DNA from: Eledone cirrhosa
Lineage: Eukaryota
NCBI GenBank assembly: GCA_964016885.1
Contig: OZ024750.1
Span: 31,992,001 to 32,056,000 of the forward strand
Reading direction: 5' to 3'
Length of the DNA stretch: 64,000 nucleotides
In this document: piece by piece, positions 27,027 through 44,371 of the stretch
Numbering within the stretch: the first letter of the stretch is position 1
Layout: every line of letters begins with the position of its first letter
Notes under the pieces: model-generated
Databases searched by the model: none
Seen by the model: only the letters and a program-made list of their open reading frames with translations
What the model was told of the DNA's origin: nothing
Made by a program: the position numbers and the translations under genes

Positions 27027-27424
27027 TGTATATATATATATGTCTATATATAATATATATATATATATATATATATATATATATATATATATATATATAT
27101 ATATATATATATATATATATATATATATATAAAAACAAATAACGAAACGAAATTAAATTTCGTTTCGTTTGTAACTCACTTTTGTATGACTGACGCTTAA
27201 ACAATTAAGTTAAAGATGTACATCCATATATGTATACTGAAATACTAGTATGTATATGAATACACACACGTATACATATGTAGGTGTACCAAGTTTTTTC
27301 ACTGGTCACTTTACTGTGAGTGGCCAGCTATTCTGTATGTAAACACACAGACAAACCGGTTTTTAGAGTCATACTGGTTTTTGAGGAAACACCTCTCCTC
27401 TATTCTCCAGAAAGCCAGACAAGG

Positions 27425-27469
27425 AATATTGAACTAGTTTCGTTGTTGTTACAACTCATCAGCAATATT
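27425..27469 (-). ncRNA. Type I hammerhead ribozyme (GUU site)
   Basis: AATATTG-CTGATGA-GTTGT(AACA)ACAAC-GAAA-CTAG-T-T-CAATATT on the minus strand. Confidence 0.9.
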
Positions 27470-27891
27470 TACCTATCTTCCGGCCTCTCTAGAGAATCGT
27501 AAAAGCACATATCGTTATATGCTTTTTCTATGAAAATTAGTAGTGGGCAGACTAATTTGCATAGAGTGTGAGTAAGTACCGGTTCAACGGAGACGATAAA
27601 AACAAATAACGAAACGAAATTAAATTTCGTTTCGTTTGTAACTCACTTTTGTATGACTGACGCTTAAACAATTAAGTTAAAGATGTACATCCATATATGT
27701 ATACTGAAATACTAGTATGTATATGAATACACACACGTATACATATGTAGGTGTACCAAGTTTTTTCACTGGTCACTTTACTGTGAGTGGCCAGCTATTC
27801 TGTATGTAAACACACAGACAAACCGGTTTTTAGAGTCATACTGGTTTTTGAGGAAACACCTCTCCTCTATTTTCCAGAAAGCCAGACAAGG

Positions 27892-27936
27892 AATATTGAA
27901 CTAGTTTCGTTGTTGTTACAACTCATCAGCAATATT
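27892..27936 (-). ncRNA. Type I hammerhead ribozyme
   Basis: Identical core, +467. Confidence 0.9.
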
Positions 27937-28358
27937 TACCTATCTTCCGGCCTCTCTAGAGAATCGTAAAAGCACATATCGTTATATGCTTTTTCTATGA
28001 AAATTAGTAGTGGGCAGACTAATTTGCATAGAGTGTGAGTAAGTACCGGTTCAACGGAGACGATAAAAACAAATAACGAAACGAAATTAAATTTCGTTTC
28101 GTTTGTAACTCACTTTTGTATGACTGACGCTTAAACAATTAAGTTAAAGATGTACATCCATATATGTATACTGAAATACTAGTATGTATATGAATACACA
28201 CACGTATACATATGTAGGTGTACCAAGTTTTTTCACTGGTCACTTTACTGTGAGTGGCCAGCTATTCTGTATGTAAACACACAGACAAACCGGTTTTTAG
28301 AGTCATACTGGTTTTTGAGGAAACACCTCTCCTCTATTCTCCAGAAAGCCAGACAAGG

Positions 28359-28403
28359 AATATTGAACTATTTTCGTTGTTGTTACAACTCATCAGCAAT
28401 ATT
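28359..28403 (-). ncRNA. Type I hammerhead ribozyme, helix III variant (C>A)
   Basis: GAAAATAGTT instead of GAAACTAGTT. Confidence 0.85.
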
Positions 28404-28825
28404 TACCTATCTTCCGGCCTCTCTAGAGAATCGTAAAAGCACATATCGTTATATGCTTTTTCTATGAAAATTAGTAGTGGGCAGACTAATTTGCATAGAG
28501 TGTGAGTAAGTACCGGTTCAACAGAGACGATAAAAACAAATAACGAAACGAAATTAAATTTCGTTTCGTTTGTAACTCACTTTTGTATGACTGACGCTTA
28601 AACAATTAAGTTAAAGATGTACATCCATATATGTATACTGAAATACTAGTATGTATATGAATACACACACGTATACATATGTAGGTGTACCAAGTTTTTT
28701 CACTGGTCACTTTACTGTGAGTGGCCAGCTATTCTGTATGTAAACACACAGACAAACCGGTTTTTAGAGTCATACTGGTTTTTGAGGAAACACCTCTCCT
28801 CTATTCTCCAGAAAGCCAGACAAGG

Positions 28826-28870
28826 AATATTGAACTAGTTTCGTTGTTGTTCCAACTCATCAGCAATATT
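28826..28870 (-). ncRNA. Type I hammerhead ribozyme, helix II top variant
   Basis: GTTGGAACAACAAC helix II. Confidence 0.85.
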
Positions 28871-29175
28871 TACCTATCTTCCGGCCTCTCTAGAGAATCG
28901 TAAAAGCACATATCGTTATATGCTTTTCCTATGAAAATTAGTAGTGGGCAGACTAATTTGCATAGAGTGTGAGTAAGTACCGGTTCAACGGAGACGATAA
29001 AAACAAATAACGAAACGAAATTAAATTTCATTTCGTTATTTGTTTTTATCGTCTCCGTTGAACCGGTACTTACTCACACTCTATGCAAATTAGTCTGCCC
29101 ACTACTAATTTTCATAGAAAAAGCATATAACGATATGTGCTTTTACGATTCTCTAGAGAGGCCGGAAGATAGGTA

Positions 29176-40896: not shown

Positions 40897-41960
40897 ATAT
40901 ATATATATATATATATATACATATATATATGAATATATATATATATATATGAATATATATATATATATGAATATATATATATATATGAATATATATATAT
41001 ATATATGAATATATATATATATATATGAATATATATATATATATGAATATATATATATATATGAATATATATATATATATGAATATATATATGAATATAT
41101 ATATATATATATATATATATATATATATATATATATATATATATATATATGAATATATATATATATATATGAATATATATATATATATGAATATATATAT
41201 ATATATATATATATATGAGTATATATATATATATATGAATATATATATATATATGAATATATATATATATATATGAATATATATAAATATATATGAATAT
41301 ATATATATATATATATGAATATATATATATATATATATATATATATATATATGAATATATATATATATATATATGAATATATATATATATATATATACAT
41401 ATATATGAATATATATATATACATATATATGAATATATATATATACATATATATGAATATATATATGAATATATATATATATATATATATATATATATAT
41501 ATATATATATATATATATACATATATATGAATATATATATATATATATATATATAGAGATATATATATATATATATATATATATACATATATATGAATAT
41601 ATATATATATATATATATGAATATATATATATATACATATATATGAATATATATATATATATATATATATATGAATATATATATATATATATATATATAT
41701 GAATATATATATATATATATATATATGAATATATATATATATATATATATATATATATATATATACATATATATGAATATATATATATATATATATATAC
41801 ATATATATGAATATATATATATATATATATATACATATATATGAATATATATATATATATATATATATACATATATATGAATATATATATATATATATAT
41901 ATATATATATATATATATATATATATATATATATGAATATATATATATATATATATATAT
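40897..41960. repeat. ~1-kb interrupted (TA)n tract with periodic TGAA/CA
   Basis: Direct reading. Confidence 0.95.
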
Positions 41961-43054
41961 ACAGAGAATTAGTACATTTACCAACATATGTTGGTAGATG
42001 TACTAATACTCTATATTTATCTCCAAATTATGTGTTGAGCAAAACTGGCCAAAATTTACTGCTGTTTCATGGTAGTAGTATGCTCTTGTCATAATACCAC
42101 CCCGCTCCCAACTGATTAACCTCGGTGTCACGTGATTGATTCTTTAGAATCTGCCACTGACCAGATGCAGTGAAATTTTTTCAGTGCTCCGGAATTTAGT
42201 CCACGCTAGCTTCTTTCCATCTACTGAATTATTATTCTGACATGGGTTCCTAGTGTCCGCGCATTGCCTGGGAACTTAGCTGAGAATAGACTCCCTGATG
42301 ACGTAATGAATTCTCTAGAGTTATATATATCATGTAACTATATTTATCCCATTACAGAAACTAATTAGTTGGAGTGAAAAATTTTAGTAAGTTGATTTTT
42401 AATTTTTTAAATTTTCTTATTTTACGTCTTTCATATATATATATACATATATATATAGATATATAGATATGAATATATATATATATATATATATATATAT
42501 ATATATATATATATATATATATATATGAATATATATATATATATATATATGAATATATATATATATATACATATATATACATATATATATACATATATAT
42601 ATATATATATATGAATATATATATATATATATATATGAATATATATATATATATATATATATATATATATATATATATATATATATAAATCTTTCGTTAA
42701 CTACTTTTCCCATCTTGACGTTATAGTCGCATATATGTTATAGAATGCCGTTAGCTTCTTGCTAAAACAATCTCTATACCTCTCATTTATATGATTATAT
42801 ATATATATATATATATATATATGAATATAACAATTAAGTTAAAAATGTACATCTACATATGCATACTGAAATACTAGTGTGTATATGAATACACACACGT
42901 ATACATATGTAGGTGTACCAAGTCTTTCACTGGTCGCTTTACAGTGAGCGGCCCAGCTATTCTGTATGTAAACACACAGACAAACCGGTTTTTAGAGTCA
43001 TACTGGTTTTCGGGGGGAACACCTTCCCTCCATTCTCCAGAAAGCCAGACAAGG

Positions 43055-43099
43055 AATATTGGACTAGTTTCGTTGTTGTTACAACTCATCAGCAATATT
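43055..43099 (-). ncRNA. Type I hammerhead ribozyme (GUC site)
   Basis: AATATTG-CTGATGA-GTTGTAACAACAAC-GAAA-CTAG-T-C-CAATATT. Confidence 0.92.
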
Positions 43100-43509
43100 T
43101 ACCTATCTACCGGCCTTTCTGGAGAATTGTAAAAGCACATATCGTTATATGCTTTTTCTATGAAAATTAGTAGTGGGCAGACTAATTTGCATAGAGTGTG
43201 AGTACGCACCGGTTCAGCGGAGACGATAAAAACAAATAACGAAACGAAATTAAATTTCGTTTCGTTTGTAACTCACTTTTGTATGACTGACGCTTAAACA
43301 ATTAAGTTAAAAATGTACATCTACATATGAATACTGAAATACTAGTGAGTATATGAATACACACACGTATACATATGTAGGTGTACCAAGTCTTTCACTG
43401 GTCGCTTTACAGTGAGCGGCCCAGCTATTCTGTATGTAAACACACAGACAAACCGGTTTTTAGAGTCATACTGGTTTTCGGGGGGAACACCTTCCCTCCA
43501 TTCTCCAGA

Positions 43510-43554
43510 AATATTGCTGATGAGTTGTAACAACAACGAAACTAGTCCAATATT
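43510..43554 (+). ncRNA. Type I hammerhead ribozyme (GUC), at the inversion junction
   Basis: Same core; N17=C at 43547. Confidence 0.9.
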
Positions 43555-43977
43555 CCTTGTCTGGCTTTCTGGATAATGGAGGGAAGGTGTTCACCCCGAA
43601 AACCAGTATGACTCTAAAAACCGGTTTGTCTGTGTGTTTACATACAGAATAGCTGGGCCGCTCACTGTAAAGCGACCAGTGAAAGACTTGGTACACCTAC
43701 ATATGTATACGTGTGTGTATTCATATACACACTAGTATTTCAGTATGCATATGTAGATGTACATTTTTAACTTAATTGTTTAAGCGTCAGTCATACAAAA
43801 GTGAGTTACAAACGAAACGAAATTTAATTTCGTTTCGTTAGTTGTTTTTATCGTCTCCGCTGAACCGGTGCGTAGTCACACTCTATGCAAATTAGTCTGC
43901 CCACTACTAATTTTCATAGAAAAAGCATATAACGATATGTGCTTTTATAATTCTCCAGAAAGGCCGGTAGATAGGTA

Positions 43978-44022
43978 AATATTGCTGATGAGTTGTAACA
44001 ACAACGAAACTAGTCCAATATT
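43978..44022 (+). ncRNA. Type I hammerhead ribozyme (GUC)
   Basis: Same core, +468. Confidence 0.92.
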
Positions 44023-44371
44023 CCTTGTCTGGCTTTCTGGAGAATGGAGGGAAGGTGTTCCCCCCGAAAACCAGTATGACTCTAAAAACCGGTTTGTCAG
44101 TGTGTTTACATACAGAATAGCTGGGCCGCTCACTGTAAAGCGACCAGTGAAAGACTTGGTACACCTACATATGTATACGTGTGTGTATTCATATACACAC
44201 TACTATTTCAGTATGCATATGTAGATGTACATTTTTAACTTAATTGTTTAAGCGTCAGTCATACAAAAGTGAGTTACAAACGAAACGAAATTTAATTTCG
44301 TTTCGTTATTTGTTTTTATATGAATATATATATATATATATGAATATTTATATATATATATATACATATAT

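Follow-up and report, generated by a model that had tools for sequence, protein, structure and literature searches.

The 64,000-nt window analysed here, from the genome of Eledone cirrhosa (GenBank assembly GCA_964016885.1, contig OZ024750.1, positions 31,992,001 to 32,056,000 of the forward strand; coordinates below are counted within the window), holds two arrays of a 467-bp hammerhead retrozyme. Each array consists of two inverted arms, one of which ends at one fixed position of the unit (site A, unit position ∼303) and the other at a second one (site B, ∼229–234). This two-arm, two-site pattern is real and general in this genome: two inverted, well-aligned arms were found in 56 of 75 insertions, all 56 with the RNA 3′ ends pointing outward and none with inward ends, and 50 of them combined an end at A with an end at B (25 per orientation); neither A+A nor B+B occurred. 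The retrozyme was likely inserted by an enzyme borrowed from a putative partner Penelope-like element (PLE), with a presumably circular RNA as the template.

The retrozyme unit and the two arrays of the window

The reference unit (29681..30147, plus strand) spans 467 nt from cleavage site to cleavage site, and unit positions were numbered from the base after the predicted cut (window position 29681). Its type I hammerhead motif, one of nine in array 1 (29642..29687, plus strand, predicted cut between 29680 and 29681), is laid out as stem I (7 bp), CUGAUGA, stem II (5 bp), GAAA, a minimal palindromic stem III of four bases, and GUU. Every unit carries the core, stems I–III and NUH, and the variants show compensatory changes in stems I and II. 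At the Rfam gathering score, no match was obtained anywhere in the window; below it, the motif was matched by Hammerhead_HH9 (E 8e-9) and Hammerhead_1 (E 3e-5), the copies in array 2 likewise being below the cut-off. No stop-free frame of 120 aa overlaps either array, the GC content is about 35%, and there is no layout with long terminal repeats (LTR). The tandem hammerhead units, their non-coding nature, a GC content below 50% and dispersed multi-copy arrays are those of non-LTR retrozymes; judged by its sequence, the 467-bp unit is thus a type I hammerhead non-LTR retrozyme of the animal type, for which self-cleavage is predicted. The segment between sites B and A, here called the tail (29910..29983, plus strand), holds a 13-bp hairpin at 29943–29971, and the 5-mer at site A occurs only once per unit. 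Across the fetched loci described below, the cut-site triplet was GUU in 271 units and GUC in 15–20 (commonest form counted). GUU is a weaker hammerhead cut site than GUC, and less efficient cleavage might promote stable circles or longer multimers.

Array 1 has a period of 467. Its left arm (27129..29037, minus strand, 1909 nt, 4.1 units, unit positions 263 to 303) has its outer end at site A, and its right arm (29009..31302, plus strand, 4.9 units, unit positions 263 to 229, with an 8-nt deletion in the last unit) has its outer end at site B. Hammerhead cores lie at 27462, 27929, 28396 and 28863 on the minus strand and at 29183, 29650, 30117, 30584 and 31051 on the plus strand, and (TA)n flanks the array on the left (27024..27128) and on the right (31303..31371). 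The arms meet at 29009..29037, on a 29-bp internal palindrome of the unit, which is atypical (overlaps of 14–29 nt in 3 of the 56 two-armed insertions), and they are not identical, with 19 mismatched positions within the palindrome that they form. Three variants of array 1 are each common to one unit per arm; two of them stand out of mirror register without explanation, both inside the hammerhead (window positions 28371/30142 and 28852/31062), and one of these recurs in a single unit of locus L054. Array 2 belongs to a second subfamily with a GUC cut site and ∼94% identity to array 1. Its left arm (42829..43511, minus strand, 683 nt, unit positions 19 to 232) ends at site B and its right arm (43509..44319, plus strand, 811 nt, unit positions 429 to 303) at site A; the cores lie at 43092 (minus), 43517 and 43985 (both plus), the junction has 3 nt of microhomology (43509–43511), and the array is bracketed by a 12-nt target-site duplication (left copy 42818..42829, right copy 44317..44328, both plus strand) that includes bases shared with the element ends.

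The original prediction, made from the letters of the window, had placed the hammerheads of each left arm on the minus strand and those of each right arm on the plus strand, with outward RNA 3′ ends, and this was borne out for both arrays. Three of the four array ends that it gave (27129, 31302 and 42829) are exact, whereas the fourth, 44318, is one base short of 44319. It also holds that both arrays end at the same two sites in swapped order (303 left and 229 right in array 1, 232 left and 303 right in array 2) and that neither outer end, being at unit positions 303 and 229–232, is the ribozyme cleavage site.

Paired ends throughout the genome

Genome searches with both window units returned 315 and 779 candidate places (the two sets overlap), of which 37 and 40 were scored. 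Outside the window, the scored places numbered 75; 72 of these, spread over more than 20 contigs, were fetched. The 75 insertions comprise these 72 loci, both window arrays and a second insertion within one locus. They represent best-scoring, young, high-identity copies with a full unit, a choice that carries no bias toward any end position. Tabulated in this way, as the original prediction had proposed, the ends proved to be fixed and not random. If each end had freely chosen A or B, the chance of 50 A+B pairs would be 0.5^50 = 9e-16. Among the 112 outer ends of the two-armed insertions, 46 lie exactly at 303, 23 at 229 and 18 at 234. At least one end lies elsewhere in the other six two-armed insertions, among which the array of L047 was counted because its left end is unreadable. 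The 19 remaining insertions end at A (14), at B (4) or elsewhere (1); four of the A-ended ones consist of a long A arm and an inverted stub of 10–41 nt that ends at B, and when arms of 8–41 nt are counted, 4–7 insertions with an inverted arm add to the 56. Comparison of the flanks between loci gave one-sided matches only, which shows that the loci are not duplicates of one another.

The two sites had been predicted to be preferred, AU-rich priming sites used by both target strands. That there are two fixed sites, and that both strands prime, fits the tabulated ends, but selection by AU-richness does not: 35 of the 467 unit positions offer pairing of at least 3 nt to a (TA)n primer, the best of them (6 nt) is the exact end in 0 of 112 cases, and A offers only 3 nt and B 1–2 nt. 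Pairing to (TA)n thus does not determine where the ends fall. Nor are the sites interchangeable, since one of each is used per insertion.

Short-read contigs of run X1, which is possibly the assembled sample (limiting their independence), exit the unit into (TA)n at 303 (12 contigs) and at 234 (4 contigs); no inversion joint was listed for these contigs, as expected for single-copy junctions. The presence of both end types in these contigs bears on whether the arrays could be artefacts of assembly or of fold-back reads, or two independent insertions into one microsatellite. The inversion of array 1 does coincide with a 29-bp internal palindrome, at which a strand switch by the assembler is conceivable. 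However, the junctions lie at dozens of different positions, the ends and flanks differ, the arms are not identical, there is no (TA)n between them, and target duplications bracket both arms, so that this explanation deserves next to no credence.

The suspected link to PLEs turned out to be direct, as an autonomous PLE of the same genome follows the same rule. The window contains a 5′-truncated copy of it (54808..55269) with the same layout in (TA)n, one arm on the minus strand with the tail (54808–55130) and one on the plus strand without it (55129–55269). The family, used here as a control, carries a hammerhead within a terminal repeat that continues into the open reading frame (ORF; 1154 aa in locus L172), which encodes a reverse transcriptase (RVT_1, E 8e-5, below the cut-off) followed by GIY-YIG (above the cut-off), and it is young (150 scored copies at 98–100% identity). 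The family ends 241 and 181 nt past the cleavage site of its own hammerhead; these two positions bound a 60-nt tail, and one of each was found in 14 of 15 loci and in 5 further ones; the 15 had been chosen as minus/plus neighbours, which biases them toward two arms but not toward particular ends.

A distant sister retrozyme family, with a ∼424-nt unit and a GUA cut site, is represented in the window by a fragment (20215..20593, minus strand) and in the genome by 718 candidates, of which 30 loci were read (L187–L216). It ends at positions homologous to A and B despite a tail shorter by ∼10 nt; by an insensitive regular expression, both ends were readable in 4 of 29 loci, three of them A+B and one A+A. 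The 5-mer of site A also stands at the sister retrozyme's A and at both ends of the control PLE.

Template, junctions and insertion mechanism

In 16 of 55 two-armed loci, all units of the two arms carry the same rare variant (one fixed in at most two loci), and in 0 of 55 is a variant common to all units of one arm missing from the other arm, which indicates that both arms were copied from one template molecule. In L037, L046 and L054, such a variant is fixed in all 7–28 units of both arms, often with 0–1 other changes. All 340 of 340 cleavage-site junctions are free of indels within 4 nt. The longest arm measures 12,859 nt (about 27 units) and the next longest 6,360 nt; the arms are alike in length (medians 816 and 796) and uncorrelated (rho 0.14). 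From these data we infer, as the simplest reading, that one monomer sequence, hence a circle, was copied over and over in the two directions. Priming of a separate RNA molecule at each target end would give the same geometry, for which part of an L1 study may be cited (PMC2837659), and template switches in L043 and L047 show that several RNAs can be at hand; yet it is very improbable given the sharing of variants between arms (16 of 55) with no arms differing by a fixed one, and it supplies no reason for one-of-each ends.

Between a circular and a linear multimeric template, the variants favour a monomer circle. The linear version of the same double priming at A and B would have a long uncleaved multimer as its template, stemming from an already uniform array. 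It equally predicts indel-free cleavage-site junctions, a mixed arm of L049 has an inner unit matching the other arm, and GUU, the weaker site, is commoner than GUC at the cut (271 against 15–20). In vitro, moreover, uncleaved RNA is the main substrate of a PLE protein and ribozyme mutants are still active (PMC11167929). On the other hand, a rare variant fixed across 7–28 units of both arms needs a one-unit bottleneck at some point in its history, an arm of 27 units demands that many consecutive uncleaved ribozymes, and the variant tables, which do not amount to a systematic search, contain no source–daughter pair that keeps the order of unit variants. A linear multimer is rather unlikely, though it keeps some weight as the main rival. 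Two-unit periodic variants were also considered as a sign of dimer circles; they do not continue into the other arm (L053, L091), which makes later duplication the likelier cause.

The inner ends of the arms are scattered across the whole unit, and only 1 of 100 lies within 3 nt of the ribozyme cut, so that 5′ truncation at this site is not supported. Typically, the junction centre has 0–3 nt of microhomology or a short insertion: microhomology of at least 2 nt was present at 26 of 42 insertion-free junctions (7.4 expected), and inserted bases, some copied from adjacent sequence, at 14 of 56. The targets are AT-rich or (TA)n with a short duplication, as in PLE insertions. Where the flanks are not pure (TA)n, duplications of at least 6 nt were found at 11 of 25 loci (shuffled flanks: mean 3.1, maximum 8), including all four loci set in non-microsatellite AT-rich DNA. 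As these duplications bracket both arms, the arms were inserted as one event.

These junctions also bear on a scheme with single priming, in which the cDNA uses a palindrome to fold back or to prime itself, the strand made on the way back ends one tail before the start, and central deletions follow later; it is close to the self-priming model that part of PMC3846280 sets out. Both the constant tail and the pairing of one A with one B would follow directly from it. Inner ends lie close together more often than expected, some variants are shared in mirror position, and 4 of 56 junctions, that of array 1 included, lie on palindromic overlaps of 8–29 nt. Furthermore, no more than 5 of 50 loci exclude both orders of copying, which does not differ significantly from the 8.9 expected if the arms were independent (p 0.10). 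Nevertheless, in 26 of 50 loci the B arm exceeds, by up to ∼6 kb, what copying of the A arm could yield, and in 29 of 50 the A arm is longer than a copy of the B arm could be, which means that fold-back fails as a model with a fixed order. Most junctions, in addition, unite unrelated positions with 0–3 nt, and the in vitro data show both target strands extended at two start sites (PMC11167929). Taken together, single priming appears improbable.

The original prediction had taken L1 twin priming as its model, which does not fit: poly(A) is absent, the two sites are fixed at a distance of ∼70 nt, and the arms repeat the same sequence. A two-start mechanism of the PLE type fits instead (PMC11167929). 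The purified protein of PAc, the Poseidon element of the green anole, cuts and extends both target strands; synthesis starts at two internal sites, which delimit the tail and are used alike on either strand (Frangieh 2024, PMC11167929). Since two-start double priming by a PLE is thereby established in vitro, double priming of the retrozyme is assigned to the PLE type and not to the L1 type. Our preferred account, which we consider moderately probable, is PLE-type priming from both target ends at two fixed sites of one probably circular RNA, followed by end joining. Tandem transcripts would self-cleave and then close into monomer circles, and a borrowed PLE enzyme would cut both strands of an AT-rich target. 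Held in an asymmetric complex, the circle would be copied from A at one end of the cut target and from B, ∼70 nt upstream, at the other. The distance that each reverse transcriptase then covers along the circle would vary (median ∼800 nt, up to 27 units), and the two cDNA 3′ ends would finally be joined head-to-head by microhomology-mediated end joining.

Several observations weigh against this account. The rule was drawn from the best-scoring, youngest loci, 72 out of 315 and 779 candidates. Seven loci have a variant at mirror rank in both arms, and six have a shared variant at different ranks in the two arms, which limits the one-template reading. Inner ends lie within 25 unit positions of each other in 15 of 50 insertions compared with 5.5 expected (permutation p 0.0006); fold-back copying or later arm-to-arm conversion would explain both these close ends and the mirror variants. 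Two-unit repeats of variants within one arm reveal changes of the arrays after insertion, so that arm lengths and the sharing of variants do not reflect reverse transcription alone. Variant type or subfamily switches along an arm in L043, L047 and L049, which suggests template switching or later recombination. One pair of the control PLE has two tails (A+A), and the sister locus L198 is A+A as well. The PAc data were obtained in vitro, ribozyme cleavage was not needed and uncleaved RNA was the main substrate, and the start sites did not differ by strand, unlike the strict pairing seen here (PMC11167929). Finally, no partner sequence shared with the retrozyme was found in the three PLE families whose ends were read.

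A bolder version of the preferred account can be put forward tentatively, its chances falling just short of even. A dimer of a PLE reverse transcriptase would grip one closed 467-nt circle at two registers and roll from both target ends; the circle would be the true intermediate of animal retrozymes, and the one-tail rule would explain the tandem, inverted and tailed structure of all PLEs.

As to the partner, the genome contains 37,901 PLE-like candidates. When the retrozyme was compared with all the sequence fetched and with 21 loci covering the 3′ ends of two additional PLE families, no homology emerged, only 14-nt matches at E 0.65. The 3′ ends of L235–L241, a young PLE family, are complementary to 14 nt directly upstream of the retrozyme hammerhead (unit positions 421–434), which is probably due to chance (E 0.65, not conserved in the sister family).

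Other elements and related units were also noted. Further PLE pieces at 37447–37960 and 15423–15726 comprise a 3′ end with hammerhead and endonuclease remains, and a reverse transcriptase fragment that is 70% identical to the control family. A third family (50790–51030, also about 55290–55480 and 55830–55900) forms two short inverted arms in (TA)n, with a one-sided extension of ∼85 nt and a hammerhead-like core at a nearly fixed palindromic centre; it has 3540 candidates, its matches having been chosen by likeness to the window copy. It is possibly a miniature PLE derivative to which fold-back at a palindrome does apply. Long frames at 7781–9861, 16901–18838 and 47365–50503 resemble, by eye, remains of non-LTR retrotransposon reverse transcriptases or endonucleases. 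Near-identical units to window 29760–30226 occur at low depth in runs X2 and X5, with one 497-nt wrap-around contig; both runs are labelled with other organisms than X1, and the 20 listed runs sharing words with the unit come from 16 studies, none of these runs being recorded as RNA. Related species, transfer or contamination could each account for these units.

Comparison with known systems

Non-LTR retrozymes of animals have been proposed to move as circular RNA copied by PLEs (PMC7229834; bioRxiv 10.64898/2026.07.22.740005; these two sources, like PMC8557442, PMC3846280 and PMC2837659, are drawn on here in part). The PLE link of Li et al. 2026 rests on co-occurrence and homology, and the ends are not analysed in the part of that preprint considered (bioRxiv 10.64898/2026.07.22.740005). 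The present retrozyme shares with those of PMC7229834 the non-coding tandem units, one minimal type I hammerhead in each, low GC and dispersed arrays. Its unit of 467 is slightly above the 150–450 bp given there and within the 51–972 bp of bioRxiv 10.64898/2026.07.22.740005. Unlike the direct tandems described for animal retrozymes in these portions, most insertions here are two-armed with fixed paired ends; the word "inverted" does not occur in the main text of PMC7229834.

The component parts were each known or predicted already, which limits the surprise; for the most part, the pattern is the signature familiar from PLEs, which a retrozyme here displays unusually clearly. An inverted 5′-truncated copy, a tail of 30–40 bp that is often one-sided, and (TA)n targets are features of PLEs whose origin is left undefined in the relevant part of PMC8557442, and in PMC3846280, as far as the part used here extends, self-priming at palindromes on an antisense template is proposed. 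With endonuclease-bearing (EN+) PLEs, the retrozyme has in common the inverted 5′ copy, the one-sided tail, microsatellite targets and short duplications, as well as the hammerhead, which EN+ PLEs carry in a terminal repeat (PMC8557442, PMC3846280). In contrast to them, it has no ORF, its tail measures 69–74 nt instead of the 30–40 given in the portions cited, both arms are multi-unit concatemers, and no sequence link to any of the PLE families compared was detected. The pattern argues against palindrome self-priming as the general cause of inverted PLE insertions.

L1 twin priming begins with a primer on the poly(A) tail, and a second primer then acts within the RNA (PMC2837659); its arms do not overlap and are separated by an internal deletion. 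The part of this source used here shows the same outward 3′ ends, inverted arms within target duplications and an end-joined internal junction. Unlike in L1, there is no poly(A) start in the retrozyme, both sites are fixed, the arms are overlapping concatemers and the inversion is the majority outcome. In the literature searched (mostly papers not under subscription), no paper on inverted, tailed retrozyme insertions was found. The strict one-of-each pairing and the one-monomer template for arms of up to 27 units were likewise not found in the published literature surveyed and go beyond it, with the qualification that supplements outside this survey (Figs S1–S2 of Frangieh, Fig S9 of Cervera, the tables of Li) may already show part of the pairing.

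The retrozyme family, whose very young copies number in the hundreds, combines a short non-coding unit with a strict two-site rule; it offers a direct genomic readout of the PLE mechanism and a minimal substrate for testing PLE insertion, and its arrays would be evidence for rolling-circle reverse transcription into an animal genome. The closest counterpart is PAc, whose protein is predicted to be a dimer: in both systems the two target strands are extended, with two internal starts that bound a tail, an AT-rich target and little homology between primer and start site (PMC11167929). The retrozyme differs from PAc in its strict pairing and in a template that appears to be a single monomer. The main text of PMC11167929 draws no link from the two starts to inverted arms, retrozymes or circular RNA; the paired ends described here tie the start sites used in vitro to the inverted arms observed in genomes.

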